In this document: piece after piece, positions 1 to 59,418 of the stretch | How the letters are laid out: every line of letters begins with the position of its first letter | Numbering within the stretch: the stretch's first letter is position 1 | IMG/VR virus record: IMGVR_UViG_3300005719_000009 | Coordinates: 12,125 to 76,124 of that record | Reading direction: 5' to 3' (one strand) | Origin: a virus | Taxonomy: Duplodnaviria; Caudoviricetes | Length of the DNA stretch: 64,000 bases | Program-made: the position numbers and the translations under genes | The notes under the pieces: generated by a model | What the model saw: only the letters and a program-made list of their open reading frames with translations | What the model was told of the DNA's origin: nothing | The model's database searches: none

Positions 1-57
1 CACTGCTAATGCAATTCAAACCGGGACTTTATGACGGAACTTTTCAAAAACCGTCAA

Positions 58-333
58 TTAATTATCAGCAATGGAATTTATTTCGTCCATAGCCGTTGAC
101 ATTCCTGCACTCGCTTCTTCAAGTGCATTTATAACATCAACCAGAGAGTCTATTGCAGACTGCATCGCTTCGCCTTTATCCCCATTCTGAAGACTCTCTG
201 GCATGTTATCGAATTTATTTTGTTCATTCTCTTGTATTTGCTCTATTTCGCCCTTCAGTTCTTCTATCAAATCCTGAATAGAGCCGCATCGTTCACTGAA
301 CTTAGTTAGTTGTTTGCGATCCTGTTTGTTCAT
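58..333 (-). CDS. conserved phage hypothetical protein (acidic, helical)
   Basis: 91 aa ORF; the MNKQDRK...FDNMPESLQNGDKGEAMQSAI pattern resembles a recurrent small phage family (recalled, not searched). Confidence 0.75.
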   Translation of the reverse strand: MNKQDRKQLTKFSERCGSIQDLIEELKGEIEQIQENEQNKFDNMPESLQNGDKGEAMQSAIDSLVDVINALEEASAGMSTAMDEINSIADN

Positions 334-466
334 GGTGAAAAGTTTTTTAATTATGAATTAATGACACGCAAGATAACACCATCAACCAACAACCGCAAGC
401 GTAAAAATACTCAATTTCAACAACGGCCTGCGAACAACAATCAATCATTCTATAAATTAGAATAAC

Positions 467-682
467 TCACATCATATTCCCGGCATCAGGAAGATGATCA
501 CGGTTACCCTCCATCAACTCCTTAAGCCGAGCAAGATATCTATCCAATTCTTCTCTGGTCGGGACATAGGGCACATCCGGGCTTTCGGGTATATTACTAC
601 CATCGCAAGTATGCTCAATAGGGACGCGCGTTTTTACTCCATGACGGATAAATGAACACGCCTGACAAAAATTTCTTCTCAT
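467..682 (-). CDS. hypothetical protein, possible Zn-binding (CxxC...HxC)
   Basis: 71 aa ORF with CQAC and HTC. Confidence 0.6.
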   Translation of the reverse strand: MRRNFCQACSFIRHGVKTRVPIEHTCDGSNIPESPDVPYVPTREELDRYLARLKELMEGNRDHLPDAGNMM

Positions 683-1182
683 AAAATAGTTGCCCGCATT
701 TGTGCGGCCTCCTATTAGTAATATCCATTCAGGTTACAGCCGGTCAACAAAATCCAAATCAATGTGGATAACTAAAGTTTAGGATTCTGTCACGCTTCGC
801 CGGTAAACACCGCTAAAAATACGCCCGACAACCGATACGCCATTTCGTCACGGCCAACCAAAATCCACCGGCTACAGGTAAGACCAGCCCCCTTTACTCG
901 CGTGTCGGCCAGCGAAGCACCCCCGTGGATAAACGACCCCGCGCGCCTTCGGGTTTCGCAAAACTGCTGACCGGGTAGGTATGCTTTCGACTTTTCGCGT
1001 TCATTATTAATGACTTATCGCTGGTTCGCGGGCGTTTTGGGCTTCGGATGAACTGTTTTTGCCGTTTGTAGCCGATATTGATCTGTTGCCGGGCGCTGTT
1101 GTGGCGTTGTTATAGCCTGTTTGCGGGGCTATTTGGGGTTTGTGCTGGGTTTGGTGTGTTTGTGTGGAGATCAGGCCCTTGG

Positions 1183-1272
1183 CGGGGGCGTGGGGGGGGA
1201 GGGGAGGCACACGTGGGCGAAGGTGTTAAAATATAGTTAAGGAGGAACTAGATTGAGTAGTTTTTGGGGGAT
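1183..1272. repeat. inverted repeat, left copy (visible inner 90 bp; probably extends leftward)
   Basis: exact reverse complement of 63911-64000; the match runs off the right edge of the window. Confidence 0.95.
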
Positions 1273-1286
1273 TATAAAAAATAACC

Positions 1287-1327
1287 GGAATATTATTTGG
1301 TATTTATAACGTTACACCATACCTTTA
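1287..1327 (+). promoter_or_regulatory. early promoter P1, Bacteroidota primary-sigma type
   Basis: TTTG (1296-1299), 20 nt, TACCTTTA (1320-1327); first 30 bp identical to 2823-2852. Confidence 0.85.
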
Positions 1328-1373
1328 CATAAACAAGCAAACAATATACAATAACAAGCTAAACGTTTAGCAA

Positions 1374-1775
1374 ATGTCGAACACATTAACAAACACCGAA
1401 GTATTAGTTACAGAATACCCTTCTTTTGAAACAGCATGGAGCGCAGCCACCAACACCGTTACTACATTCGCGGCCTTTCAAGGCATGGAAAGTAAAATTA
1501 AATACATTAAGCAGGCGCAACGTTGGTTTGTTACGGAAGACAATGAACTGTACTATTCATATATGACTAATGACGGCGTTCGTATCGTAACAAAAGCTGA
1601 GGTTCACAGTATGTTAAGCAATAGTGCCTTTCAGTACATACAAATAATGGTTAGCCCTGACACTGAATCGAACCCTAAGCGTACCGGTAAATTACGCTTC
1701 AGCGGTCAATTTACAGACAGGAAGGGAGCAATCAACCTGTCAAAGCAATCTGAAGTATTTGCTTTTGACAAATAA
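1374..1775 (+). CDS. early hypothetical protein
   Basis: 133 aa, first gene after P1. Confidence 0.75.
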   Translation: MSNTLTNTEVLVTEYPSFETAWSAATNTVTTFAAFQGMESKIKYIKQAQRWFVTEDNELYYSYMTNDGVRIVTKAEVHSMLSNSAFQYIQIMVSPDTESNPKRTGKLRFSGQFTDRKGAINLSKQSEVFAFDK

Positions 1776-1783
1776 CATATCGC

Positions 1784-1806
1784 TGGCCCGGTTAAATGCC
1801 GGGCCA
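1784..1806. other. intergenic GC-rich hairpin (8-bp stem, no U tract)
   Basis: TGGCCCGG-TTAAATG-CCGGGCCA. Confidence 0.6.
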
Positions 1807-1836
1807 CAATACCTAACGAAATAAACAACTTGTATT

Positions 1837-2061
1837 ATGAACACCTTCTTAAACTTGTACAACGAATTTAATTGCGATCGTTACGAAATGATTAGGCAAA
1901 TCACGGACATTAACACCACGCCATTAATCGCACGGATTTACGAACGCGGCATTCAGGAACAATACAACGCAAAATACCGACCGCATTATTACGGCCAAAA
2001 TGCAACAAAACGGCTATCGCGTCAATATGCGCACAATTCATTGCTTTTATCATTGCACTAA
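1837..2061 (+). CDS. early hypothetical protein
   Basis: 74 aa in a co-oriented tight gene array. Confidence 0.65.
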   Translation: MNTFLNLYNEFNCDRYEMIRQITDINTTPLIARIYERGIQEQYNAKYRPHYYGQNATKRLSRQYAHNSLLLSLH

Positions 2062-2073
2062 ACAATTAACATC

Positions 2074-2268
2074 ATGCGTACAATAGAATTATTAGAAGAT
2101 ATGAAGAGTTGTGTTACACAAGGGGAAAAGAATATACCAGCGGGAACTATTATGGTAGAATACTATTCACAACTTTCATGGGTTTACTTCAAAGACAAAC
2201 AAGGCAACACCATGATAATTATGGGGCATAGTTCCACCGACTGGAATAAAGTTAAACAAATAAATTAA
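2074..2268 (+). CDS. early hypothetical protein
   Basis: 64 aa, A-rich leader. Confidence 0.65.
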   Translation: MRTIELLEDMKSCVTQGEKNIPAGTIMVEYYSQLSWVYFKDKQGNTMIIMGHSSTDWNKVKQIN

Positions 2269-2279
2269 ACACTTAATGT

Positions 2280-2516
2280 ATGAAACCAACAAATCATTAC
2301 ATAGATATGTTTCAGCCTGTTATTGACGCATGCAAAACCAGTGAAGAGTATGGGAAGGCATATATACGCATTTCGTCCTGTGTTGCTGGCATAATATTAG
2401 GTCGTGGCGTTAATCAATCACTGGAAGATTATTTGGCCGCAAACCCAGTAAAGAAAGTGTTTTTTGATTGGTGGCATTCGGTTAGGCATGATATTAACGC
2501 AAAATCTACATTTTAA
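2280..2516 (+). CDS. early hypothetical protein
   Basis: 78 aa. Confidence 0.65.
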   Translation: MKPTNHYIDMFQPVIDACKTSEEYGKAYIRISSCVAGIILGRGVNQSLEDYLAANPVKKVFFDWWHSVRHDINAKSTF

Positions 2517-2526
2517 ATATACCTGT

Positions 2527-2820
2527 ATGGTTTACTACGAATGGAGTTTAGAATACACTGATAAAGACGGCGATATAACAAACAGTGATTTTGCTGACAA
2601 GGTTGCAGATTTTGGCGCAGATGTTTTACAGGGGCGGCTGTGTCTTGTCAGAAATACAGGCAATGAAATAGACGGATTACAGGAAAGACACTGGGCATAT
2701 GTAAAAGATGGCAAGCTGCCGGTATTCTTTGAAGATAGCGCAGCCAGTGAAACCACTATTAAAGTACCTAAGCGTTTTCATGTAGAACTTGCGCATGCTG
2801 AAAAACATTTCCAAAAATAA
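2527..2820 (+). CDS. early hypothetical protein
   Basis: track ORF 2464-2820; ATG at 2527 (MVYYEW) avoids overlap with the previous gene. Confidence 0.65.
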   Translation: MVYYEWSLEYTDKDGDITNSDFADKVADFGADVLQGRLCLVRNTGNEIDGLQERHWAYVKDGKLPVFFEDSAASETTIKVPKRFHVELAHAEKHFQK

Positions 2821-2822
2821 CT

Positions 2823-2863
2823 GGAATATTATTTGGTATTTATAACGTTACATTATATATTTA
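2823..2863 (+). promoter_or_regulatory. early promoter P2
   Basis: TTTG (2832-2835), 20 nt, TATATTTA (2856-2863). Confidence 0.85.
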
Positions 2864-2883
2864 CAACATCAAATCAGAACAAC

Positions 2884-3081
2884 ATGAAACAGACTAAAGT
2901 ATTACCTCAATTACGCTACAACCAACTGAATATAATTCAGAAAATAAACGCAAAATCTAATGTGTTGACTATTATTTTAAACCCTACTGTGAGGGTTAGC
3001 AAATTGGCTCATTTATACAGCTCGGTATCTTACATATGGCCACAATATTATACTATTCCTTTTGTGGATACTTATAAGTAA
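2884..3081 (+). CDS. early hypothetical protein
   Basis: ATG at 2884 downstream of P2 (the track start at 2833 lies inside the promoter). Confidence 0.5.
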   Translation: MKQTKVLPQLRYNQLNIIQKINAKSNVLTIILNPTVRVSKLAHLYSSVSYIWPQYYTIPFVDTYK

Positions 3082-3082
3082 A

Positions 3083-3136
3083 GGTTAACTGATGAGCTGT
3101 TATTCAGCGAAACCGGTGTAATATCCGGTCTTAACC
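3083..3136 (+). ncRNA. type I hammerhead ribozyme
   Basis: stem I GGTTAA/TTAACC, core CTGATGA, stem II GCTG/CAGC, GAAA, stem III CCGG/CCGG, GUC cleavage triplet ending at 3130. Confidence 0.9.
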
Positions 3137-3153
3137 ACACAAACTGAAACAAT

Positions 3154-3258
3154 ATGAACACAACAACACACATTCATCCGCTGTTCCAGCTATTAATAGG
3201 AGCTATCATAATAGGCATTGGATTTTATTTTGCATACTATAAAAAGTACAATAACTAA
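3154..3258 (+). CDS. small single-pass membrane peptide (34 aa)
   Basis: hand translation MNTTTHIHPLFQLLIGAIIIGIGFYFAYYKKYNN; below track cutoff. Confidence 0.55.
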   Translation: MNTTTHIHPLFQLLIGAIIIGIGFYFAYYKKYNN

Positions 3259-3287
3259 TACAATCACCCTTTAATAACCTTTTAATC

Positions 3288-3503
3288 ATGCCACAACAAT
3301 CAGATAATCAAATAGGTATAAATTTTCGCTCCTTATTGGATGGCGAATTGTCCCAATTCATTCCTGATTACAATCAGCGTAATGAGTTCATTACACGGCT
3401 GGAAACCAGATTGATTCAAAACGACTGGATTACATTATCGGCTGGTACTACATTTGATCGCTCATTTATCGCTGGTCTTGACATAAAATTAATTAACCCA
3501 TGA
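3288..3503 (+). CDS. early hypothetical protein
   Basis: 71 aa; ATGA overlap with the next gene. Confidence 0.65.
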   Translation: MPQQSDNQIGINFRSLLDGELSQFIPDYNQRNEFITRLETRLIQNDWITLSAGTTFDRSFIAGLDIKLINP

Positions 3504-3736
3504 GCAATACAATTGATCAGCGCGAAAAAGATATTCAGGCGTTATGTGATGCCGTATTATATATGTCACCAAACTTTTACGACAACCCAAATGGTGGCTA
3601 TGAAAGTACTTGCCCTATTTGTCAGGCAATGGAAAGTCGGGGTGGCAGTACAGATATATGGGCCTCAATGGGCGAATTAACACACAAACCGAATTGCGCC
3701 TATCTTATAGCCAAAGATTTATCTACAGGACACTAA
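3500..3736 (+). CDS. early hypothetical protein, likely Zn-binding
   Basis: CPIC ... HKPNC. Confidence 0.7.
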   Translation: MSNTIDQREKDIQALCDAVLYMSPNFYDNPNGGYESTCPICQAMESRGGSTDIWASMGELTHKPNCAYLIAKDLSTGH

Positions 3737-3765
3737 ATTGATTAACTAATAAACTGTATGTATTT

Positions 3766-4017
3766 ATGAAACTAACATTAACCCGTAGTAAATCATCCCT
3801 AGAAAGATACTACTTAATACCCGGCTCAATGGGATGCGCGGGAGAACCGTTAAATCATGCAAATCACAAATACCTAATAGCTAATGGCGTTGATAATGGC
3901 AACGGATATCAGGGGTATATGTCAATATCTTATTTTTTAAAACAGGATTATATCCCAAAATCCGCAAAACAGAAAGTAATCAGATTATTATCGTCGGAGA
4001 ATCTAATATTTGATTAA
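3766..4017 (+). CDS. early hypothetical protein
   Basis: 83 aa. Confidence 0.65.
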   Translation: MKLTLTRSKSSLERYYLIPGSMGCAGEPLNHANHKYLIANGVDNGNGYQGYMSISYFLKQDYIPKSAKQKVIRLLSSENLIFD

Positions 4018-4050
4018 ATCAAACACTATTCAATAACATTTAAATCATTA

Positions 4051-4260
4051 ATGATGGGAAACAATTATGAAGTAATAGTAGGCAATGCCGGTACTATGCA
4101 ATACGAAAATTACACCCTTGCTAAAGAGTGCTATGATACATATGTAAGACTTTCTAAGGATAGCGAAACAAGAGTGTCAAATGAGCCGGTAACACTAATG
4201 AAAGACGGTGAAATAATTGCCGAATATATTCCTGAGGACCGCAATAGTTTAATTGATTAA
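4051..4260 (+). CDS. early hypothetical protein
   Basis: 69 aa, flanked by a ~25-bp direct repeat. Confidence 0.7.
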   Translation: MMGNNYEVIVGNAGTMQYENYTLAKECYDTYVRLSKDSETRVSNEPVTLMKDGEIIAEYIPEDRNSLID

Positions 4261-4278
4261 ATCAAACACTCTTCAATC

Positions 4279-4410
4279 ATGCCTCCTATACCATATACTT
4301 TAGTCTTAGGCCATACAGGCGGTTGGCACTGGCCAGCAAGCGATACAACCGTTATCAATACGCCTGATTATAATTTCTGGTTTACATTTCATTTCATAAC
4401 AATAAACTGA
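4279..4410 (+). CDS. small hypothetical protein (43 aa)
   Basis: hand translation MPPIPYTLVLGHTGGWHWPASDTT...; fills the intergenic gap. Confidence 0.45.
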   Translation: MPPIPYTLVLGHTGGWHWPASDTTVINTPDYNFWFTFHFITIN

Positions 4411-4417
4411 AACCACA

Positions 4418-4705
4418 ATGAAAACACAAATTAAAATCAATGGGCAAATCGGTGGCAATCACAGATTAGCAAACCGAATTTTAGCAGTTGGTAGCCGAAT
4501 AGAATCATGCGTAAATGGCATGTTTAATTCAAAGCTACTCACCTTTGAAACTAAACGGGCAGCAAAACAAGCGCTTTGGAAGTCCTATACTTCATTATGT
4601 GCCGAAGAGCCAACCGCCCGTGGTCATTTTGGCGGCATTAGGTATTCATCCGGATCAGCACTTTATTACGATGCCTCAGAAGCCGTTATTATCGATAATA
4701 AATAA
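4418..4705 (+). CDS. early hypothetical protein
   Basis: 95 aa. Confidence 0.7.
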   Translation: MKTQIKINGQIGGNHRLANRILAVGSRIESCVNGMFNSKLLTFETKRAAKQALWKSYTSLCAEEPTARGHFGGIRYSSGSALYYDASEAVIIDNK

Positions 4706-4743
4706 ACACAAGACTACAACCCTAACCTTCTAAACTCAAAATC

Positions 4744-4842
4744 ATGAAACGTTTATTCAAATCAATTTCACCCTTTTTCATTGGCATTCTTATTATGGTA
4801 GCCATATTCCTACTATTACACCATACCTCATTCAGTAACTTA
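4744..4842 (+). CDS. small membrane peptide (32 aa)
   Basis: hand translation MKRLFKSISPFFIGILIMVAIFLLLHHTSFST. Confidence 0.5.
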
Positions 4843-4871
4843 AACTATTCGCGGTAAAAACTAATTGAAAC

Positions 4872-4908
4872 TTTTATTTGGTATTTATAACCTCATTAAA
4901 TACCTTTG
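4872..4908 (+). promoter_or_regulatory. early promoter P3 (full consensus)
   Basis: TTTG (4877-4880), 20 nt, TACCTTTG (4901-4908); ATG only 5 nt later. Confidence 0.85.
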
Positions 4909-4913
4909 TGTAT

Positions 4914-5156
4914 ATGGGACGAAAATCAACAAAACATTCAGGCGAAATGTACGCATTAGCTCAGACTACAATTGAAGGCATGCGAATTGGAGAAGTACGC
5001 ATTATTGCATTGCCTTCAGATATGCCGTTTTTCAGAAAATATTTAAGCGAAATTGGCAAGCGCACAGACTGTAAGTATACAACAAAAACAATGTCTGACA
5101 AGCTACACATAATGCGTATTAAATACTCAAATATCTATTCCAAAAAAGTAGAATGA
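4914..5156 (+). CDS. small basic protein, candidate regulator (probably leaderless mRNA)
   Basis: ATG at 4914 (MGRKSTKH...) directly after the P3 -7 box; K/R-rich. Confidence 0.6.
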   Translation: MGRKSTKHSGEMYALAQTTIEGMRIGEVRIIALPSDMPFFRKYLSEIGKRTDCKYTTKTMSDKLHIMRIKYSNIYSKKVE

Positions 5157-5192
5157 TTTTAGTTAACAAAGTTTTCACTAAAACAATTGAAG

Positions 5193-5229
5193 TATTATTT
5201 GGTATTTATAACGTTATGTATTATCTTTA
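5193..5229 (+). promoter_or_regulatory. early promoter P4
   Basis: TTTG (5198-5201), 20 nt, TATCTTTA (5222-5229). Confidence 0.85.
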
Positions 5230-5249
5230 CACTATCAAACTAAAAACAC

Positions 5250-5483
5250 ATGCTGTACTACAAAGTAAAACCACACGCCGACCAAATAAACAAAGGAATC
5301 AGAACTAAAAAAGGATTTCTTATTAAAGATGAATTGTTTACGCCACGTGAAATAGAAAAAGCAATACAAGCTGGTAGAATTGATCACGAGTTCACAAAAA
5401 ACCATTTTAGCCGTATAGAAATAAGCCCCAAACGAACCTATTTCTTTTTTGGTGCCAGAAAATCAGCAGCAGATACTAAATAA
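5250..5483 (+). CDS. early hypothetical protein
   Basis: 77 aa after P4. Confidence 0.7.
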   Translation: MLYYKVKPHADQINKGIRTKKGFLIKDELFTPREIEKAIQAGRIDHEFTKNHFSRIEISPKRTYFFFGARKSAADTK

Positions 5484-5502
5484 ATTTATTTAAAAAACAC
5501 CT

Positions 5503-5667
5503 ATGCAACTACTTACAACATATTCATTCACAGCCAGTGACATTAACCTTATAACATTTGCGTTACGTCGGTTCGCTGAAACAGCTACCGTAGGCTCATT
5601 GGCGAAAGACGCAAAGAACTTAATTGAATACATAGAAGAGCAGAAAAAAGAAAAGGGCATTAAATAG
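5503..5667 (+). CDS. small hypothetical protein (54 aa)
   Basis: hand translation MQLLTTYSFTASDINLITFALRRFAE...; co-oriented with neighbours. Confidence 0.55.
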   Translation: MQLLTTYSFTASDINLITFALRRFAETATVGSLAKDAKNLIEYIEEQKKEKGIK

Positions 5668-5707
5668 CCGATGTTACGTAACACTATAACTAATTAACTA
5701 TAAACTT

Positions 5708-5905
5708 ATGGCACGCAGAAAATATCATACCGAAGCTACAGTTATACCGAAAACATTTGGGTCTGGGCATTCAGTAAATCATACTAAATACGGCAAAGGA
5801 AAGTGTGTTGGGTTTGTTCAGGGGAAATATTGGCGCATTCATTTTGACAGCGGGGATGTTCGAGATTTTTTACCCGCTAAATTATTTTCAAGTCTAATAA
5901 ACTAA
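5708..5905 (+). CDS. small beta-barrel (SH3/Tudor-like) hypothetical protein
   Basis: VNHTKYGKGKCV...RIHFDSGDVRDF pattern. Confidence 0.55.
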   Translation: MARRKYHTEATVIPKTFGSGHSVNHTKYGKGKCVGFVQGKYWRIHFDSGDVRDFLPAKLFSSLIN

Positions 5906-5918
5906 TTAACTCTATTGT

Positions 5919-6176
5919 ATGAATCATTTTGCCGCTATAGAACATTCCGTAAAAACCTCTTTTAGAGAAAATTATTCACTGTATAAAGAAAAATACCCTT
6001 CGATTAATTCAATTCCAACAAACCGGGCGTGTGCTAATGCACTTGATTACGCCGACAGCATATATCATTTACGTGAAATAGAGCAGGAACAAAATGAAAT
6101 AAAAGCCGGGGTCACATTAACACATTACGAAGACTGGGTTATTTCTGAATTAAAAGATTTAGCAAAAACAATATAA
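5919..6176 (+). CDS. early hypothetical protein
   Basis: 85 aa. Confidence 0.65.
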   Translation: MNHFAAIEHSVKTSFRENYSLYKEKYPSINSIPTNRACANALDYADSIYHLREIEQEQNEIKAGVTLTHYEDWVISELKDLAKTI

Positions 6177-6197
6177 CTAATTACTATAACACCTTAA

Positions 6198-6398
6198 ATG
6201 CCTTATATTATGATCACCACAAAAAACAGACAAGACGAAAACCTGCACACAGTTGAACAAATAAAAGCAGCAGGCAATAAAATATACACAACCAAAGGAG
6301 ACGAAGGGCTGCATACATCATACGGCAATACCCATACATTATGGACAGAAGCAGAGCCGGGACTATATAAGCCATACCACGCATACACGCGCAATTAA
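6198..6398 (+). CDS. early hypothetical protein
   Basis: 66 aa. Confidence 0.6.
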   Translation: MPYIMITTKNRQDENLHTVEQIKAAGNKIYTTKGDEGLHTSYGNTHTLWTEAEPGLYKPYHAYTRN

Positions 6399-6432
6399 CA
6401 ATGCATTATAACACCTTAAATACTTTACTATT

Positions 6433-6678
6433 ATGAACACAACAACACAACAACCAATAGAATTTACTAAATTAAAACATGATCAAAATGGTAACCCGCG
6501 ATATGTATGTAGCTGGCTGGCATTCAAAACAAAAACATACGCTGAAGCTATTAAGTTGGCAAATAAAATAGGCGGCAGAAAGTACAACAATAAAACGTTT
6601 GGTGGTGGTATCGTATTCACTTCATTTAATCCAAAAATAGAAGAAAAGCTGATTCGTGAAATTGCGGCAAAACAATAA
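6433..6678 (+). CDS. conserved phage hypothetical protein
   Basis: HDQNGNPRYV...ANKIGGRKY...GGGIVF; starts MNTTTQQP like the next gene. Confidence 0.75.
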   Translation: MNTTTQQPIEFTKLKHDQNGNPRYVCSWLAFKTKTYAEAIKLANKIGGRKYNNKTFGGGIVFTSFNPKIEEKLIREIAAKQ

Positions 6679-6708
6679 AATTAACAAACACATTAAAAAC
6701 ACAACACA

Positions 6709-7623
6709 ATGAACACAACAACACAACAACCCGCATCAAACGACCTCCGCTATACCATCAATACACATGATGCAGACGGAAATACAATGACTATAAAAAT
6801 AAGGCTTAACGACGAATTCAAAAACGGTCATCAGGATTTTGCAATCACTGCCGACATATACCAAAAAGGGAAGCCAAAAACAGACCGCTACTTTATAGCC
6901 GGTGGTTGCTGCCATGATGAAATATTAGCCGCCCGCCCGGACTTGAAATTGTTTGTCGATCTTCACTTATGTGATTATAAAGGCATCCCAATGCATGCAG
7001 TCCAAAATGGGTTTTATCATTTATATAATGGGTTTAATAACACAAAAGCTGATAACCCATCATTTGTTAGTGAGTTTTGCCAATACTACAGAATAACAAC
7101 CATACAATTTGCTGCACTTTGCGAATGCGAAAATACAACTCAATACGCCTTACAGCTTCAGAATTTAGGCATATTAAAACAATGGGAAACACAAGCAAAC
7201 GAAGCAATTAGTCTATTAGAAAAAATGACAGGTAAAAAGTTTTTGGTTGATAGTAAAAGAACACAATACAACGCCCCAACCCCCGAACAAATACAGGAAG
7301 AAAAAGAAAAACAGGCAAACGGGTACTATACACCCGCGGCCAAAGAACAACGAGAAAATGACAAAAAGAATGCATTGCACGCCAAAATAGATGCCGAATG
7401 GGATCAAAAAGTAAAAGAAATTAGCACAGAATACAGCCTTAAAAAACGCGTATTAGACATCGGGGGCGAAGCAGCACTAAAAAATTGCATCTATTATAAT
7501 CATACAAAACAATTAGCATTTAACTGGAAAGGATACGACCGCATAAGCGACGAGCTTATAAACAAAATAAAGGCTGAAATAATATTGCCTGACGGCGTAA
7601 CAATTAGAGACGAAAAGAAATAA
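6709..7623 (+). CDS. conserved phage hypothetical protein, possible metal-binding
   Basis: 304 aa; GGCCHDEI...LHLCD..G.PMH. Confidence 0.8.
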   Translation: MNTTTQQPASNDLRYTINTHDADGNTMTIKIRLNDEFKNGHQDFAITADIYQKGKPKTDRYFIAGGCCHDEILAARPDLKLFVDLHLCDYKGIPMHAVQNGFYHLYNGFNNTKADNPSFVSEFCQYYRITTIQFAALCECENTTQYALQLQNLGILKQWETQANEAISLLEKMTGKKFLVDSKRTQYNAPTPEQIQEEKEKQANGYYTPAAKEQRENDKKNALHAKIDAEWDQKVKEISTEYSLKKRVLDIGGEAALKNCIYYNHTKQLAFNWKGYDRISDELINKIKAEIILPDGVTIRDEKK

Positions 7624-7652
7624 CTACTACCGAACCACTACAAGACTAAGGC

Positions 7653-7952
7653 ATGAAAATATACAAATATGAGCCCACCTATTTTGTAAGATTGCAAATA
7701 GTAAAACAAAAAGAAGAGGCCGAATACTTGACTCTGCACGAAACCACCATTGAAGAAGTAAAAGAAATGTGCAAAAAAGTAGTAGTAAGCCAAAACATTA
7801 CCCCATTTGAAAAAGGGTATAAAACAACTATCAACATAAGAGAAGCAACAGGAGGCACCAATGGAAAATCCACTTCTTTATCATTCAGGGGTATTAATCC
7901 AATCAAAGTAAAAGATCTTATTGTTGATTACATTGAATCTAATTATAAATAG
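7653..7952 (+). CDS. early hypothetical protein
   Basis: 99 aa. Confidence 0.7.
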   Translation: MKIYKYEPTYFVRLQIVKQKEEAEYLTLHETTIEEVKEMCKKVVVSQNITPFEKGYKTTINIREATGGTNGKSTSLSFRGINPIKVKDLIVDYIESNYK

Positions 7953-8031
7953 TTGTGTTGTTCATTAATGGCTGAAACCTATCAGCACAACCAAATAGGG
8001 AGTAGGCCATTTAATTTAAATATTTAAAACT

Positions 8032-8250
8032 ATGCAAACAGAATTTACATGCGGGATATATCACGCGATACAGGTTGAAAGCAGATGGGAGATAACCGTA
8101 AATAAATATACATTAGCCGTAGTAACTATTGATGGCAAAAATGTAAAATTCTCTGATTTGCCAGTTCATTTGAAAATTGACGATCTAATAGAAATAGTCG
8201 TATTAATGAACAACATTAAACGACAATACAAGCAATTTCACAATGCGTAA
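8032..8250 (+). CDS. early hypothetical protein
   Basis: 72 aa. Confidence 0.65.
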   Translation: MQTEFTCGIYHAIQVESRWEITVNKYTLAVVTIDGKNVKFSDLPVHLKIDDLIEIVVLMNNIKRQYKQFHNA

Positions 8251-8422
8251 ATTAACCTACAAACAAAAGCGCATCATAGAGGCGCATCAATCAAACTCTT
8301 TAAAAAAAGACAACAAAGGGTACTACTATAGCGTACCCACGTCAATAAGACGTAGCGGCGAAATGAGAGTGCAACAAAAAGAAATTAACACATTAATAAA
8401 ATTAGGACTATGGAACAAATAA
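8243..8422 (+). CDS. small basic hypothetical protein (59 aa)
   Basis: hand translation MRKLTYKQKRIIEAHQ...INTLIKLGLWNK; overlaps both neighbours. Confidence 0.55.
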   Translation: MRKLTYKQKRIIEAHQSNSLKKDNKGYYYSVPTSIRRSGEMRVQQKEINTLIKLGLWNK

Positions 8423-8706
8423 AGCCTTTATCTAAGGCGCTAAAAATAGCTGAAGAACAAATACCAATAACACCGGATGATTCAGAATTATTAAAAGCAG
8501 GCAAATTATTGGCGCGAACTTCTTTTGTTTCTGGTGCTAAATGGCAGAAAGACGAAGACGCCGAAATATTAAAAGCATTGTCTAGTGTATACAACGAATA
8601 CATGCAGAGCACAAAAAAGAATGGCAAACAACCATACACGGTACTTGTTTCCATGAATTTTCAAACAATGCAACACGTAGCAACTATTTTAAACAAACAC
8701 CTATAA
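8410..8706 (+). CDS. early hypothetical protein
   Basis: 98 aa; SFVSGAKWQK motif. Confidence 0.65.
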   Translation: MEQIKPLSKALKIAEEQIPITPDDSELLKAGKLLARTSFVSGAKWQKDEDAEILKALSSVYNEYMQSTKKNGKQPYTVLVSMNFQTMQHVATILNKHL

Positions 8707-8709
8707 TTT

Positions 8710-8946
8710 ATGTCTAAATCAATTTTGAAACTCGTTAAAACAGAAAACCTAAAAGGGGAAATATGGTATCACATTTACCACAATGACACATGCCTTAAAG
8801 CTTTTGTTGACGACACGTGCATTGATAGCGGAACGCCATCAGAAAAGACACTAAATGAAGCCTTAGACTTTTTCAATAAAATGAAGCTCCGCCAAAAGGA
8901 TGGCTACCCGAAAGTAACAACACTTGAATCATACGGAATGGATTAA
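8710..8946 (+). CDS. early hypothetical protein
   Basis: 78 aa. Confidence 0.7.
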   Translation: MSKSILKLVKTENLKGEIWYHIYHNDTCLKAFVDDTCIDSGTPSEKTLNEALDFFNKMKLRQKDGYPKVTTLESYGMD

Positions 8947-8954
8947 TTTAACAT

Positions 8955-9248
8955 ATGAAACTTACAAAACAACAGAGGCGCGAAATATATAAAAAGGCTT
9001 TAAAAATGCTGCATAATGAAATAAGTAACGGAACACAATGCACAGCCGTTTGCCCTAACTTATTCGATGTTTCACAACAAATGGGCATTGAAGAAGGGTT
9101 CCTATCGATTTCAGTAGATTTCCCCGAATTTTATTCGCAGAAACCAGCCGACCGAAAACTAATTGACGTGTGGTGGGATTATGACAAAAACGGCAACCTA
9201 CAAAGGGAAGAAGCTTTATTAAAAGCAATAGAACTGACTAAAGACTAA
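8955..9248 (+). CDS. early hypothetical protein
   Basis: 97 aa. Confidence 0.7.
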   Translation: MKLTKQQRREIYKKALKMLHNEISNGTQCTAVCPNLFDVSQQMGIEEGFLSISVDFPEFYSQKPADRKLIDVWWDYDKNGNLQREEALLKAIELTKD

Positions 9249-9424
9249 GCCCTACAAAAATACTAACCAAAAAAACATCAGTATGCCCCACTGAGCTACG
9301 CGGTAGCAAAACGAGGGTTCACGAAATCAGTCGTTATGAAAAACTAAATGATGGTCAGATTTGCGTCGCACACTTACTATATCGGTAAAGTCTGACTAAT
9401 AGTTGTTCACAGTTATTGATTTGT

Positions 9425-9494
9425 TGTAACCCGGCCAACCACCGGGTTACATGGGAGGCAATGGAAGCGTAGGTTCGACTCCTACCCCTCCCGC
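9425..9494 (+). ncRNA. tRNA-like element (acceptor stem plus T arm, no D or anticodon arm) preceded by a 10-bp hairpin
   Basis: GGGAGG (9453-9458)/CCTCCC (9487-9492); T arm GTAGG-TTCGACT-CCTAC (9469-9485); upstream TGTAACCCGG/CCGGGTTACA. Confidence 0.65.
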
Positions 9495-9529
9495 TAAATA
9501 TTTAAAACTAAAACCACGATCTAAAAATC

Positions 9530-9751
9530 ATGAATCCACAACAACTTATTGGAACCGCCTTTGAATATTCCACAATTTCAAGCTTATCCATTGGCATATC
9601 AAACGACATGGTAACATTGATTTCTTTAATGCGTATGTACGACCGACCGCATGAAGAAATGAAACTCCTTTCTGATGTGCGCCTATTGCTAACTCAATAC
9701 CACTTCACATACACACAATCAGCACTTGAAAAAAGTCTATTAAACAAATAA
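9530..9751 (+). CDS. early hypothetical protein
   Basis: 73 aa. Confidence 0.6.
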   Translation: MNPQQLIGTAFEYSTISSLSIGISNDMVTLISLMRMYDRPHEEMKLLSDVRLLLTQYHFTYTQSALEKSLLNK

Positions 9752-9764
9752 ATATAATCAACAA

Positions 9765-10049
9765 ATGAACACCCCACACAAATACAGAAGATCAGCAATT
9801 CACTTTTGGATACTGCTCCCTCTTGCTATTATCATTGCAGTTATATTATTGAGCAGTTGCCGCCCACAACGTGGCTGCAATGGCACACGCGGAATGTCCG
9901 GCTATTCCAGCGTTGACAAAAAAATATTCACCACATTACACCTCGCATGGCTGAAGTGTCGTGAAACCGGCAAAGTAATCGCAACTGATATGAATGGAAA
10001 TATTATCTGTACATACTACGAAACCCCATCTATATGCAAGGAACGATAA
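9765..10049 (+). CDS. putative lipoprotein
   Basis: hydrophobic N-terminus and lipobox LSSC. Confidence 0.65.
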   Translation: MNTPHKYRRSAIHFWILLPLAIIIAVILLSSCRPQRGCNGTRGMSGYSSVDKKIFTTLHLAWLKCRETGKVIATDMNGNIICTYYETPSICKER

Positions 10050-10234
10050 CATGGATAAACTGTGATGACAAGTTGCCGGAAAATGAACACGGTCAACCTT
10101 GCTCTAATGACATTTTACTTATTGCACCGGGTCAGAGACCAACTACAGGGTCTTACTGGGCACTCGCAGATCAATTTTCTCATTCAGCCGGGAATTGGCG
10201 ACCGACTCATTGGGCTTACATAAATTACCCATAA
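10034..10234 (+). CDS. DUF551-like phage protein
   Basis: WINCDDKLPE ... PTHWAY signature. Confidence 0.7.
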   Translation: MQGTITWINCDDKLPENEHGQPCSNDILLIAPGQRPTTGSYWALADQFSHSAGNWRPTHWAYINYP

Positions 10235-10246
10235 ACAAAAACAAAC

Positions 10247-10453
10247 ATGAAACAAAAAACAACCCAAGACCCACTAATTAAAAAGTTCGGCGTTCCTAAA
10301 TACAAGGAAGGCGACAAAGTAACTACTTCGGTTACCGGAAAAGAAGTACTTACAATAAAAGGCGAAGCATGGAACAATGGCTTTAGCTGGATGTATAACT
10401 TTAAAGAAAAAACAATGTCTGCTGGTCAATCGTATATAAAACCAGCAAACTAA
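10247..10453 (+). CDS. early hypothetical protein
   Basis: 68 aa; PKYKEGDKV motif. Confidence 0.6.
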   Translation: MKQKTTQDPLIKKFGVPKYKEGDKVTTSVTGKEVLTIKGEAWNNGFSWMYNFKEKTMSAGQSYIKPAN

Positions 10454-10482
10454 ATCTCTAAACAAAATAAACAAAATCAAAA

Positions 10483-11019
10483 ATGAAACATTTAATCTTT
10501 GCCCTATTAATGGGGATCGGTATTGCCAGCATGGCACAGAACGGTGGCCAATATCCCGAAAACAATACAGCCAAACTTGAATACATGGGAGGCGGTAAAA
10601 TTAAGATCATAAACAAACAATCTTTCCCATGCGACTTCAAAGTGAACGACAGCAAGACTGAGAGCGATATAACAATCCCAGCCAATTCGAACTACCTGTA
10701 TCAACTGCCTCCTGACTTATTAACAAATATCCACTTTAAGGTTAAGTGCGTTACAAACAATGGCATTACTGACTTAGGATGGATTGAACTATTCTTAACG
10801 TCACTACCATTGAAGTTTGTTAGCTTCAGCACAACGAGAATATCAGACACAGAGTTCTGGGTTGACTTTGAAGTAGCAGAAGTAACAAACGTGAAACAAT
10901 TCAATATAAAAGCATCCTTAGATGCAAAGGTGTGGAAGGTTATTACTATCTTATTCCCTGATGAAATACAACCTAATCGTAAATATTCGGTAAAAATAAA
11001 TCTAAGTCAATGGAAATGA
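10483..11019 (+). CDS. secreted protein with host-like Ig-type 'LPV/LPL..F' module
   Basis: signal peptide MKHLIFALLMGIGIASMA then Q; C-terminal LPLKFVSF...FNIKASLDAKVW resembles modules of Bacteroidota T9SS cargo. Confidence 0.65.
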   Translation: MKHLIFALLMGIGIASMAQNGGQYPENNTAKLEYMGGGKIKIINKQSFPCDFKVNDSKTESDITIPANSNYLYQLPPDLLTNIHFKVKCVTNNGITDLGWIELFLTSLPLKFVSFSTTRISDTEFWVDFEVAEVTNVKQFNIKASLDAKVWKVITILFPDEIQPNRKYSVKINLSQWK

Positions 11020-11408
11020 AACACACGCCGGGGCCGTGGAAATTCCCTTTCAATCAACTCCCGGAAACGACCACAAAGATTACTGTATTGCCTGAAAATG
11101 ACCCCAATAACGGCATTGGTTGGGATTTTAAAACAATTTACATATCAGACAACGACAACAACGTATTAGCAGAGGTGAAGGCATTTACATGCAAAGGCTT
11201 CATTAACGACTTTAATCAATGGGAAGCGAACGCCAAGCTAATCGCCGCAGCACCAGCCATGTACGACGCCATTCAATGCGCATTAAACATAAAAGACCTT
11301 TGGAGCGCTGACCCACAGGGTACTATATCTGCTGATCGCGAAGGCGAAATGCAAGCCCTTAAACTAATGCAAGAAAAGTTTGAAGCAATCATCAAAACTC
11401 TTGACTAA
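11010..11408 (+). CDS. conserved phage hypothetical protein
   Basis: KHTPGPW ... EANAKLIAAAP motif. Confidence 0.75.
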   Translation: MEMKHTPGPWKFPFNQLPETTTKITVLPENDPNNGIGWDFKTIYISDNDNNVLAEVKAFTCKGFINDFNQWEANAKLIAAAPAMYDAIQCALNIKDLWSADPQGTISADREGEMQALKLMQEKFEAIIKTLD

Positions 11409-11440
11409 CCAATAATAATTATCAATTAAATAAAAACAAC

Positions 11441-11617
11441 ATGAAAAAAACACTTTTAGCGTTAACTATTGTCTCTTTGGCTACTGCATGTAAAAAAGAC
11501 TACATTTCCAAAGACCACAAAACAGAAACAACTGTTTATCTACAAATCGAAGCTCCTGACAATGACAACTTAACAACAACGGTATCGGATATTAAAACCG
11601 TAAAAGTAAAGCAATGA
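11441..11617 (+). CDS. small lipoprotein (58 aa)
   Basis: hand translation MKKTLLALTIVSLATACKKDY...; lipobox ATAC. Confidence 0.65.
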   Translation: MKKTLLALTIVSLATACKKDYISKDHKTETTVYLQIEAPDNDNLTTTVSDIKTVKVKQ

Positions 11618-11722
11618 CGAAGTGGCCCGTAAATGCCATTACTAAATAGCTTCTTTGTAGTCACCACCAACCAAAAGCCGGGGTATTGGGCAGTGTGGCC
11701 CCGGCAATTTTAATTTAAAACT

Positions 11723-12205
11723 ATGCATACAGAAAAACACTTTCAATTCGCCACACTCCTACAACAACACACCGGCATCGTATACAGCACCATATCGAAA
11801 TATGGGCACGAAGGCATCAGCCATGAGGACTTGTTTCAGGAGGTAGCCCTTAGAGCGTGGCAGGCTTATGATAGATTCAGGGGTGATGCAAAATTTAGCA
11901 CATGGCTGGCATATATCACCCGTAACACATGCGTTGATGCGTGGAGAAGATTAAAAACAACCGTTCAAACTGTAGCCTTTAGCAACTGTTTGTTTGAGGT
12001 AGATTTAGCAGACAATACTGAGGAATATCAAGAGCCGGTTTCGCTACCCACAATCGACTCCTTTACTACTATTGAAAAAACAACCCTTAACTACATTTTA
12101 GAGGGTTTAAGCTATAAACAAATAAGCGCTCTTACAGGAGAACCAACTAATAGAATCGCAGTGAGAATGCACCGGATCAAAAAAGAATTTGCAAAGCACT
12201 TATAA
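11723..12205 (+). CDS. ECF-type sigma-70 factor
   Basis: region 2 DLFQEVALRAWQAYDRFRGDAKFSTWL..ITRN..VD; region 4 GLSYKQISALTG...AVRMHRIKK. Confidence 0.9.
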   Translation: MHTEKHFQFATLLQQHTGIVYSTISKYGHEGISHEDLFQEVALRAWQAYDRFRGDAKFSTWLAYITRNTCVDAWRRLKTTVQTVAFSNCLFEVDLADNTEEYQEPVSLPTIDSFTTIEKTTLNYILEGLSYKQISALTGEPTNRIAVRMHRIKKEFAKHL

Positions 12206-12229
12206 CTATTTAGTTCGAGAAGGTAACAC

Positions 12230-12263
12230 AAAAAAGGGGCGATCACTCTTGATCTGGCCCCTT
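12230..12263 (-). terminator. intrinsic terminator at the early/late convergence
   Basis: GGGGC/GCCCC stem followed by T6 on the - strand, downstream of the endolysin. Confidence 0.65.
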
Positions 12264-12305
12264 ACTTACTCTTTAAGAACCCGCGAAACATCCAAAAATC
12301 GGGGT

Positions 12306-12914
12306 TTAGTTAATAATCGCCTTGCATCTTTCGTAAAACATTTCCCGTTCATCGAGCCCGTTAAAGCCGCCATTAATCCTTAACGTTATATATTCAACAG
12401 GATGAATGTATTTTATTTTTTTCTGGTATTTAACTTTAATTAGAACATGATCCCCCATGTTGGCGATAGTGTTGAAATCATGATGCGCCCAATAATCACA
12501 GGCGCTCCACACGGCATAATTTGGTTCAGCCAACAACGTAGGATTACCCCTGAAATCTACGTGTGATCGCCCTGATTCATTCCACGATATAGTAGCCCTT
12601 GTATAATTAGCCGCTCCGGTTACCATAAATATCCCTCTCCCTTTATACAATCTACCATCCCCGTCTTTTTGAGGCGTATTACCTAAATCAACTCTTGTGT
12701 CGTATGCATCACCCGTAGCGTATTCTTGCAGAGAATTAAATGAATCCGTTTCGTACGCCGCCTGTGCTATAAAATGGCAATACTCCGATTTTGTATCTAT
12801 GCCATAATGCGGGAAATAATCATTCATGCGATCTGCCAATGGTGCCAAGAGCTTGTACCCGCTTTTTTTACTCCCCGGTGCAATTTGTTTAAGTATATCT
12901 GCTGTAATGATCAT
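12306..12914 (-). CDS. endolysin, glycoside hydrolase family 19
   Basis: HFIAQAAYET, DLGN...GDG..YKGRG, INGGFNGL..R motifs; ATG at 12914 overlaps the upstream stop. Confidence 0.9.
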   Translation of the reverse strand: MIITADILKQIAPGSKKSGYKLLAPLADRMNDYFPHYGIDTKSEYCHFIAQAAYETDSFNSLQEYATGDAYDTRVDLGNTPQKDGDGRLYKGRGIFMVTGAANYTRATISWNESGRSHVDFRGNPTLLAEPNYAVWSACDYWAHHDFNTIANMGDHVLIKVKYQKKIKYIHPVEYITLRINGGFNGLDEREMFYERCKAIIN

Positions 12915-13339
12915 AAAAATACCTTCCACGCAATAGTTATAGAATAAAACATCGAGTACCAGAATACGATTTTCTTGCCGTCATAGTCAATGCCAAATAT
13001 CCTCCTTTCAACCTTGTCCCACCACGCCTTAGGTGGATTAGCCGCAGACTGATGATACCACGGCAAATGTCTGCGCAAATTCAACGGAATGTCAAAAGAT
13101 AATTGCCGATTACAAAATGCAGACATACAATATACAATTACATCTATGTATGGAAATTTACACCACGTTATTTCAGGCTTATTTGCCAACCAGTAAAGAA
13201 TAATTGAAAATACAGCATACGAGATGAAATTTACGCCATGCGCAATAGCCTTATCTTTTAATATTCGGTATGCATCAATACGAGAATTGATCAGATTGAA
13301 CCCGACAAGACAGCATTGATTTACGAGATACGCAATCAT
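12911..13339 (-). CDS. multi-pass membrane protein (lysis region)
   Basis: several hydrophobic segments. Confidence 0.65.
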   Translation of the reverse strand: MIAYLVNQCCLVGFNLINSRIDAYRILKDKAIAHGVNFISYAVFSIILYWLANKPEITWCKFPYIDVIVYCMSAFCNRQLSFDIPLNLRRHLPWYHQSAANPPKAWWDKVERRIFGIDYDGKKIVFWYSMFYSITIAWKVFL

Positions 13340-13557
13340 GACTTACTTTTGTCACCAAACCAAAAATAGCACCATCCAATAACGAGAGTAACCCCAGAGG
13401 CAATTGCGAGAATATCCCAGAACCTCCACCAGAAAGAATGGTTGGCGTAGTCACTAAGCCCCGGATATATAACAGGGCCAAACACGCAATTAAGCGCCGT
13501 AAACAACCAAAGCAAGTCTTTTAAGTTTTCTTTGAACCATGATTTTTGTGCTGACAT
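13336..13557 (-). CDS. two-TM membrane protein, holin candidate
   Basis: two hydrophobic helices, basic C-terminus. Confidence 0.55.
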   Translation of the reverse strand: MSAQKSWFKENLKDLLWLFTALNCVFGPVIYPGLSDYANHSFWWRFWDILAIASGVTLVIGWCYFWFGDKSKS

Positions 13558-13580
13558 ATAAATTGTTTTGATTAAATTAA

Positions 13581-14351
13581 TTACTTACGCCTTCTTAATG
13601 ACAGCGGTAAATTCATTTGTGTTTCAACCATTGTCCCATGTGTTCCCCAATAGCCCTTTACTCCATATTGCACCTTATACTTAGTTTGATACATTAAACC
13701 AACGCCAGCCATTTCAGGAAATGGCGACCATAAAACGCCCCATGAAAAATAAAGCTGCCCCTTAACGCCGGAGGCATTAACCGCATCCTTACTTATGTCC
13801 TTACTATCCTGAAGACTTTGGCCTAATTTTGATTTCTCTTGATCTTGTTGCGCTATCCTGTCTGTCTGTAGTTTTTCTTTAATACGTAACGAAAGTTTAA
13901 GCTGCTCATTATCTGACTTATATTGTTGCACTAATTTCTGCCCATTAGAAAGTTCAGTAAAACAACCATTACAATCAACTATAAATTCGTTTGGGACATA
14001 TGTATGTGACGTATCTGTATCCGGCGTGATTTCTTTATGCTTTGCAAGTAGCAAACTAATTCTTATATTCGCCACATCCAATTCATTGTTGATTCTTTCA
14101 ACCTGATTTTCTTTTATTTCTAATTGCCCATTAGCGACTTCCAGAGCGACTTCATAGTCTCTTTTGTTTGCCGCAAACTCAACGCTATCCCTTTTTGTTT
14201 TAGCAATAAGCGAATCATTTTTCGTTTTTAACTCATTACTTTCTTTAAAAGCATATTTTGCATTACCGCAACCTCTAAATAGCATAAATATCAATAAGGC
14301 CACACCAACAATTGATATTATAATAAGAACCGGACTAATTTTTATACTCAT
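13581..14351 (-). CDS. membrane-anchored coiled-coil protein, spanin-like
   Basis: N-terminal TM ending FRGC, long coiled coil, beta-rich aromatic C-terminus. Confidence 0.55.
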   Translation of the reverse strand: MSIKISPVLIIISIVGVALLIFMLFRGCGNAKYAFKESNELKTKNDSLIAKTKRDSVEFAANKRDYEVALEVANGQLEIKENQVERINNELDVANIRISLLLAKHKEITPDTDTSHTYVPNEFIVDCNGCFTELSNGQKLVQQYKSDNEQLKLSLRIKEKLQTDRIAQQDQEKSKLGQSLQDSKDISKDAVNASGVKGQLYFSWGVLWSPFPEMAGVGLMYQTKYKVQYGVKGYWGTHGTMVETQMNLPLSLRRRK

Positions 14352-14385
14352 ATTGTCATTGTTTTAACACGGCCAAATATAATAT

Positions 14386-14835: not shown

Positions 14836-15029
14836 GGTGGAGTTCCGGGGCCATGTGGGGGATTGCTTCCTCCTTCACTATTGATACTTTGTCTTTCTAA
14901 CTTAACACACGCTTCACGGTGCAATACCTCTCGCGCCCGTTCCATTATAAGCCACGCGTCTGCATAAGTAATACCATTTAATGAAGCAATCAATTCTCTC
15001 GCTTTTTGTAAAATTTGATCTGAATCCAT
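14832..15029 (-). CDS. hypothetical protein
   Basis: 65 aa; ATGA overlap with the next gene. Confidence 0.55.
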   Translation of the reverse strand: MDSDQILQKARELIASLNGITYADAWLIMERAREVLHREACVKLERQSINSEGGSNPPHGPGTPP

Positions 15030-15049
15030 ATTGTTGCGTTATTTTTGTT

Positions 15050-59411: not shown

Positions 59412-59418
59412 ATAAACT

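Follow-up and report, generated by a model that had tools for sequence, protein, structure and literature searches.

An inverted repeat with one internal and one terminal copy in a metagenomic Bacteroidota phage contig, and the inverted-terminal-repeat labels of its relatives

The ends catalogued for tailed-phage genomes are cos ends, direct repeats and headful, Mu-like, protein-primed and N15-type ends. Contigs of Caudoviricetes flagged as carrying inverted terminal repeats (ITRs) are commoner than expected, and artefacts may be included among them (PMC9610469); by CheckV, just 33% of ITR contigs were of high quality (PMC8116208). False calls of ITR completeness, arising from the collapse of inverted repeats during assembly, have been suspected (PMC9610469; PMC8116208). 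Here we analyse the IMG/VR record IMGVR_UViG_3300005719_000009 (contig L020; 76,124 nucleotides, nt), in particular an inverted pair of 90-nt repeats, R and R', of which the first lies inside the contig and the second forms its right end. The window, that is, the whole 64,000-nt stretch of DNA presented above, corresponds to contig 12125-76124; it starts at contig base 12125, with 12,124 nt of contig upstream, and the contig ends at window position 64000. An earlier note, made from the letters of the window, had proposed that the repeat bounds a phage carrying terminase and portal genes.

By the large terminase subunit (TerL), the nearest cultured phages are the Pachyviridae and Pervagoviridae (Cellulophaga phi46:3 and phi18:3, Tenacibaculum Gundel), whose TerLs are about 29% identical to that of the contig; cultured phages are only distant kin. 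These families resemble the present phage in being podophages of Bacteroidota hosts, with genomes of 72-78 kilobases (kb) and with GroES or GroEL genes. Short direct terminal repeats have been predicted for Gundel (PMC8776804). Unlike our contig, the assemblies of these families close as circles, and they are too distant to belong to the same family; phi46:3, a temperate phage deposited as circular and possessing integrase and repressor genes, is too distant for comparison. Window positions 1-1500 gave no match to cultured-phage DNA. A search with the major capsid protein (MCP) recovered 24 IMG/VR relatives at 68-90% identity (denoted below by G and L numbers), and relatives have been binned with metagenome-assembled genomes of Flavobacteriales/Bacteroidetes.

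The repeat pair and the layout of the contig

Window positions 1183-1272 are the exact reverse complement of positions 63911-64000 (90 nt, 100% identity, by repeat search and direct reading), just as the earlier note had stated. The pair is the sole repeat of at least 30 nt over such a distance in the whole contig (self-BLAST), and chance cannot explain it. R sits 13.3 kb inside the left contig end, R' comprises the last 90 nt of the contig, and the left contig end (1-90) has no similarity to R. The exact sequence of R was found in no IMG/VR or JGI/ENA metagenome contig besides the source record. The IMG/VR entry describes the 76,124-nt contig as linear, with a CheckV completeness of 100% and without end repeats. 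From left to right, the contig consists of the left end, arm A, a non-coding core, R, the core segment X (62.6 kb, in the order E-S-P-D), R' and the right end. The features are listed below, with open reading frames (ORFs) taken from a whole-contig map in the case of arm A and functions assigned there by Pfam and PHROG matches.

Contig 87-12806, minus strand: arm A, about 34 small genes reading away from R; the last (87-677) encodes a RusA-like resolvase, and the others include an ECF-type sigma factor, an HNH endonuclease, a NUDIX protein and an exonuclease
Window 1-682, minus strand: proximal end of arm A, with ORFs 58-333 and 467-682 as the first two genes of the arm, which reaches contig base 87, 12,037 nt before the window
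Window 683-1182 (contig 12807-13306): non-coding region a, GC-rich by composition
Window 1183-1272 (contig 13307-13396), plus strand: R, the internal repeat copy, 90 nt; at its outer end it carries a G-run, CGGGGGCGTGGGGGGGGAGGGGAGG, and at the inner end it borders directly on the first promoter-like element of arm E
Window 1278-1350, 2814-2886 and 5180-5252, with a partial copy at 4869-4907, plus strand: a 73-nt promoter-like direct-repeat family (D1, D2) of arm E
Window 1374-12205 (contig 13498-24329), plus strand: arm E, which reads inward from R and has about 34 small genes
Window 11723-12205, plus strand: an ECF-type sigma factor, the last gene of arm E
Window 12306-57141 (contig 24430-69265), minus strand: block S, with virion, packaging and replication genes
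Within block S (window): MCP 35741-37147, TerL 38490-40577, portal 40579-43083 and GroEL 43943-45505
Within block S (window): single-stranded DNA-binding protein (SSB) 51543-51980, DnaC-like helicase loader 52310-53236 and clamp-like protein 54519-55535
Also within block S: three giant virion proteins, and methyl- and glycosyltransferases
Window 57235-61138 (contig 69359-73262), plus strand: block P, a gene group that serves as a marker of core orientation in relatives
Window 61219-63850 (contig 73343-75974), minus strand: arm D, nine small genes reading inward from R'
Window 63859-63868 and 63883-63892: two copies of a 10-nt palindrome, GTTACGTAAC, between R' and the first gene of arm D (direct reading)
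Window 63911-64000 (contig 76035-76124), minus strand: R', the terminal repeat copy, inverted relative to R

In this layout the repeat does not bound the phage as had been supposed: R is 13.3 kb inside the contig, and the genes at 58-682, which the earlier note would have included in the repeat, are the first of about 34 in a 12.7-kb arm outside R. The match was also said to run off the window edge; it does reach position 64000, but only because that is the last contig base. An inward-reading early arm just inside each repeat copy was correctly recognised, the first ORF of arm E starting at 1374 (101 nt from R) and that of arm D at 63850 (60 nt from R'). R and R' share one orientation relative to the arm that each precedes, and from its position R may serve as a shared upstream control sequence for both arms. 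The 73-nt family contains the palindrome TAACGTTA and the element TATTATTTGGTATTTATAACGTTAC, and each copy precedes a gene group. The GTTACGTAAC pair looks like operator sites, as a candidate. When window 1100-1300 was folded as single-stranded DNA, the result was not significant (z = -1.4).

Assembly graph, relatives and the ITR labels

The reading that we favour, with slightly better than even confidence, is that the contig is the complete linear genome, of about 76 kb, of a Bacteroidota podophage-like virus, in which R is internal, R' is terminal and the core flips by recombination. R would be a 90-nt element directly upstream of both gene arms that read into X, and the assembly graph would take the form of a lollipop, with a single-copy stick (arm A, non-coding core and R) and a loop (X). 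Where the repeat is shorter than the k of the assembler, as here, the whole molecule would be recovered in one contig; where it is longer, the loop alone would be reported with k-long inverted stubs, and would be mislabelled as an ITR genome.

Three rhizosphere runs contain the sequence, and their Logan k=31 contigs, which are independent of the IMG/VR assembly, were placed on contig 1-16000. In the probable source run, one k=31 contig spans 1-10173 and halts exactly at base 1 without overhang, and both contig ends are dead ends at identical bases in two unrelated assemblers. Another (contig 10151-13396) crosses the outer edge of R (window 1182/1183) without a branch and ends at the inner edge (1272/1273), from which two paths exit, one into flank b (a 24-kb contig) and one into flank d (the sequence next to R'). 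On its inner side R thus connects to two sequences in the k=31 graph, and on its outer side to one. In a second, independent sample, one contig spans a-R-b with no differences. A 37-nt element at contig 10144-10180 (1,945-1,981 nt before the window) has a k-mer depth of 110, as against 16-19 for the phage. It joins many different flanks in all three rhizosphere runs, several of them with CCCCCG…CGGGGG hairpins, and is common to many other replicons of these samples.

The same repeat pair occurs in eight related assemblies, of which five are labelled as ITR genomes and are given a CheckV completeness of 100%. Self-comparison of these five showed terminal inverted repeats of 123 nt in G005, 120 nt in G006, 127 nt in G008, 76 nt in G010 and 123 nt in G011. 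Two further assemblies have a layout like ours, G007 with repeat arms at 1-94 and 62898-62991 and 12.9 kb beyond the internal arm, and G012 with repeat arms at 4663-4762 and 74837-74936 and 4.7 kb beyond it. By self-comparison, G001, G009 and G013 contain no exact repeat, and they still end in a G/T-rich region with a G-run that resembles the arms of most others. The first 69 nt of G009 (IMGVR_UViG_3300010397_000044) consist almost entirely of G, probably through an artefact of two-colour sequencing at a G-run end, and the first bases are not to be trusted. Neither a non-coding core nor a repeat was detectable in G028 and G029, and seven mid-size related contigs have ordinary internal breaks at their ends, with no G/T-rich ends and no fold-backs. 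G002, L008 and L009 were left out of the comparison as too distant.

A 27-mer search with the repeat of G011 led to L093, a SPAdes contig from an unrelated bioreactor metagenome, which carries an 8.5-kb outward-reading A-like arm, a homologous G/T-rich non-coding region and the exact 123-nt G011 repeat, and which terminates at the inner edge of that repeat. G011 is therefore the loop only, because L093 holds the missing stick, and the two together amount to 67,992 + 8,514 nt, or 76.5 kb. Collapsed inverted repeats of this kind are known from de Bruijn graphs of plastid genomes, with their large single-copy, inverted-repeat and small single-copy regions (LSC/IR/SSC), and G005, G008, G011 and probably G010 are likewise loop contigs with k-long stubs. 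Our phage differs from the plastid-type collapse in that the stick is single copy and its far end is a dead end rather than a second loop, and in that the repeat is resolved in our contig, with one copy really the last assembled sequence. The ITR genome labels in this phage group are by-products of assembly from a lollipop graph.

The best-surviving alternative to the linear genome, though an unlikely one, is a circular or concatemer-derived genome (plastid-like, or a cos or pac circle) in which R and R' flank arm A and the contig end joins the start. The replication genes hint at a circular template, and a cos phage sampled as virions would show two dead ends too. Closure, however, needs two neighbours at the outer edge of R, where the k=31 graph has one, at 16-19x; the contig that covers base 1 ends at that base and does not run on into R, and a junction of R' to contig base 1 at usable depth is absent from that graph. 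The G-run was crossed without trouble at the internal copy of R, and G007 and G010, which have AT-rich repeats, halt in the same way. A circular or direct-terminal-repeat flag was found on 0 of the 25 related records examined, and in many samples contigs end at homologous sites on the two sides.

Less probable still is that the whole 13.4-kb stick stands at both ends of a genome of about 89 kb, as a long terminal inverted repeat of the poxvirus or rudivirus kind, and was collapsed in assembly. A palindrome in the relative L102 and a fold-back in L093, both at the far end of the stick, would suit this, and such a form could occur as a replication intermediate. The mean k=31 depths are nevertheless 15.8 for arm A, 17.4 for contig 10151-13396 and 19 for the core; the arm-A side thus has 0.83-0.92 of the core depth, as expected of a single copy and not of two. 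In addition, stick plus X keeps a constant size of 74.9-78.7 kb across the resolved genomes, whereas twice the stick plus X would span 79.6-89.4 kb for capsids whose MCPs are 70-90% identical, and G001 and G009 were each assembled as one contig, of 78.4-78.7 kb, that contains a single stick (arm A and core) and no repeat. The same depths bear on the length of the repeat, which the earlier note had expected to exceed 1.2 kb if the match continued. With a second 1.2-kb copy the depth would rise to about 21.7 or more, and the observed values are compatible with at most about 330 nt of extra copy; since the outer flank is single copy at a depth of 17.4, a two-copy repeat longer than 1.2 kb is excluded.

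Scans with Pfam and PHROG of about 50 proteins, including all ORFs of more than 280 amino acids (aa), recognised no protein-primed polymerase, terminal protein, protelomerase, integrase, invertase or transposase, in agreement with the earlier note as regards the polymerase and the protelomerase. That the replicon is a true ITR genome, R-X-R' (62.8 kb, protein-primed or with two hairpins), to which arm A was misjoined through the repeat, is very improbable: the five ITR labels and repeat lengths within the range of PRD1 or adenovirus ITRs speak for it, but at least seven independent assemblies, two of them without a repeat to misjoin through, connect the core to arm A or a homolog of it. Arm A carries genes of a phage and has a depth like that of the core, the non-coding core is missing from the ITR contigs, the missing stick of G011 has been found, and none of the enzymes of such a replicon was recognised. 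The stubs of 123 nt (twice) and 127 nt are common assembler k values and agree with the highest k set in SPAdes and in the JGI runs of MEGAHIT. The idea of a Mu-like transposable phage was dropped, as no transposase was found in these scans and the flank, arm A, is constant.

Inversion of the core, and the adjoining non-coding region

With arm A and the non-coding core as the reference, the segment X reads E-S-P-D in our contig, G007 and G009 (type I), and D-P-S-E in G001, G012 and G028/G029 (type II, three or four lineages). When the R-R' segment was flipped in silico, 39 of the 42 genes shared with G001 were co-oriented, as against 4 of 42 as assembled, and the inversion breakpoints coincide with both repeat positions. 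G001 and G009 have no exact repeat, and their core orientation is therefore not the choice of an assembler. Since both orientations of the 62.6-kb segment occur among the relatives, the repeat positions are the breakpoints of the inversion. The repeat copies are 99-100% identical within a genome and unrelated in sequence between genomes, a pattern that points to continuing homogenisation of the copies. As the copies are alike within a genome and lie at the inversion breakpoints, homologous recombination between R and R' would flip X relative to arm A. The inversion is seen as fixed in different lineages, which is distinct from a coexistence of isomers within one population. Of the circular map with flip isomers that the earlier note had offered as an option, the flip is thus in keeping with the two orientations among relatives, but the circle is not, there being no closure in the contig, the k=31 graph or the 25 relatives.

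Flip-flop systems (plastids, the L and S segments of herpes simplex virus, the yeast 2-micron plasmid) likewise have a unique segment between inverted copies, both orientations and concerted evolution of the repeats. The present group differs from them in that the repeat is 90-127 nt, one copy is at a DNA end, no dedicated recombinase was recognised and fixation in lineages is the form in which the inversion is seen. It is also unlike the Mu G/Gin and P1 C/Cin systems, as no invertase was found and the repeats are wholly different in sequence between relatives; the Pfam and PHROG scans gave no serine invertase, resolvase/invertase or tyrosine recombinase domain.

The non-coding region a, which adjoins R, is on its plus strand first C/A-rich and then G/T-rich, the GC skew passing from -0.25 to +0.6. 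At its sharp C-to-G skew switch lies a core of about 230 nt (window 913-1141) that is kept in all arm-A-bearing relatives, among phages with protein identities of 40-70%. It contains the boxes CACCCC, GGGTTTCG, ACCGGGT and AACTGTT, with the spacing of the last two fixed at 86-89 nt. Region a is homologous to its counterparts in G001, L093, G012 and G007; against the internal non-coding region of G001 it gave an alignment score of 96, in the same orientation and adjoining arm A. A profile of the core matches our contig, G001, G007, G012, L093 and, weakly, G009; in the five ITR contigs it found nothing, save a part that overlaps the repeat of G011. RNAalifold gave -9.5 kcal/mol with no covariation, and there was no Rfam match; region a probably acts at the DNA level, as a control sequence or origin, rather than as a structured RNA, and its core is a candidate replication origin or divergent control region. 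A Chi-like role of the G/T-rich strand was considered and dropped, the 5' end of that strand being at the terminus, which is the wrong polarity. In G001 (L016), an XRE-type helix-turn-helix gene (7836-8156) lies within the non-coding control region, where our contig has none. The Rfam scan covered window 1-6000, and its weak hammerhead HH9 match at 3074-3154 (18.9 bits against a gathering score of 52, E 0.63) is sub-threshold and unrelated to the repeat. Two ECF-type sigma genes, at contig 9153-9614 (minus strand, arm A) and window 11723-12205 (plus strand, end of arm E), suggest that the phage redirects the host RNA polymerase in two steps.

Genome ends and the RusA-like gene

At the right end, the terminal repeat copy reaches the very last base in three resolved genomes (90, 94 and 100 nt). 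At the left end, the last gene of arm A (contig 87-677, minus strand) is kept in our contig, G012, L093, L100, L102 and others, and this RusA-like gene lies within 156 nt of the contig end, or is cut by it, in nine of the ten contigs with a close homolog. The distance from stop codon to contig end is 86 nt in ours, and distances of 111, 130 and 150 nt were also recorded. The exception, L102 (IMGVR_UViG_3300017784_008985), is over its whole 6,702 nt its own reverse complement, with 0 mismatches. The axis of this palindrome lies 142 nt past the RusA-like stop codon, and exonuclease-like and RusA-like genes face each other over a 284-nt spacer with an AT-rich axis. Among database users, L102 would pass as a viral fragment with duplicated genes. 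L093 ends in a 29-nt fold-back, and the motif TGATTATCAAT…TTACAAC recurs near left ends.

An AlphaFold model of the last arm-A protein has a predicted local distance difference test score (pLDDT) of 75, and its best seven PDB matches are all E. coli RusA (E 2.7e-5 to 1e-3; template modelling score, TM, 0.65-0.74 on target). The protein has weak matches to three RusA PHROGs; Pfam and the PDB sequence profile gave no RusA match, and it is the fold that supports the assignment. The residues D137, D147, D158 and D159 are invariant in the RusA-like alignment, and the protein, of 196 aa as against 120 aa for E. coli RusA, is about 70 residues longer. As Pfam and the PDB profile miss it, the predicted resolvase represents a divergent branch of RusA, always the last gene before the left genome end.

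On the favoured reading, the molecule would stay linear, with its left end some 100-150 nt past the RusA-like gene. A hairpin at this end, or a head-to-head junction in replicating DNA, has in our estimate somewhat less than an even chance, and an open, cos-like end is a little less probable than that. The lack of circular assemblies, the fold-back in two relatives and the resolvase gene adjoining the end argue for closed or head-to-head ends. As in hairpin-ended genomes (poxviruses with the A22 resolvase, rudiviruses with theirs, and N15 with TelN and telRL), there is no circle and no terminal redundancy, and in a relative a perfect palindromic junction has been assembled at one terminus, with a predicted Holliday-junction resolvase gene adjoining. 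Unlike such genomes, the phage has no recognised protelomerase, dissimilar ends, no long terminal repeats, and a terminase and portal; enzymes of the RusA family are not known to act as telomere resolvases. It also differs from the protein-primed phages phi29, PRD1 and Cp-1 in having no identical repeats at both ends and no family B polymerase that could be found. As regards cos-type ends, the assemblies show two fixed, non-redundant ends, and joined ends were seen in 0 of 25 relatives. In three lineages whose repeats are unrelated, R' matches R through its final base, which a simple cos model leaves unexplained, and this identity suggests copying between the DNA end and the internal copy. The ends of the type foreseen in the earlier note, with ITRs, do not apply, as the repeat is short (90 nt) and not terminal on both sides. 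Its suspicion of an unusual end strategy has fared better, since the ends look non-standard for a terminase phage, with no direct repeat, no circle, one end that is an inverted copy of an internal element, and another at which the assemblies of two relatives fold back near the RusA-like gene.

A tentative extension of this reading, to which we give a rather low probability, holds that the group never circularises. A hairpin or head-to-head junction at the left would be resolved by the RusA-like enzyme, and pairing of R' with R, by strand invasion or in a panhandle, would maintain the right end by regenerating it, which would account for the identity through the final base in three lineages, and would flip the core, thereby yielding two genome isomers.

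Several points weigh against these interpretations. The locus is viewed in assembled contigs and not in raw reads. With an assembler k of 90 or 91, those last 90 nt would instead be a stub, and the true copy could be somewhat longer, reaching about 330 nt as judged by depth; 90 is an even number and not a usual k. A promoter role of R gains no support from the motif TWTTTGG at its inner edge, which is not enriched, with 63 matches in the window against 51 expected and 7 of 100 shuffles reaching 63; because of this lack of enrichment, the motif was dropped as promoter evidence. RusA-like resolvases are common in phages in which they are unconnected with telomeres. Our own contig has no fold-back or terminal palindrome at either end, and the DnaC-like loader, the clamp and SSB fit theta or sigma replication of a circle. 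These host-type replication genes, which fit cos ends sampled as virions, and the missing fold-back argue for cos-type ends.

For the study of Bacteroidota phages from soil, freshwater and bioreactors, the contigs labelled as ITR genomes and 100% complete are without 2-13 kb of genome, and the missing part holds the conserved region that probably serves for control or as an origin, together with a sigma factor and genes of recombination. Statistics of genome length, gene content and completeness that rest on these labels are therefore wrong. The combination of a terminal repeat copy with an internal one 5-13 kb from the opposite end, four-fifths of the genome found in either orientation, the absence of circles and the fold-backs near a predicted resolvase gene is unlike the catalogued tailed-phage ends named at the outset. 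Should the left junction indeed be resolved by the RusA-like enzyme and the right end be maintained by pairing of R' with R, this would be an end type outside those recognised for terminase-packaging phages. If the ends are hairpins or are maintained by recombination, terminase phages would have more ways of replicating and packaging linear DNA than are known at present; if they are plain cos ends, a clear case would remain of the repeat-mediated inversion of most of a phage genome.

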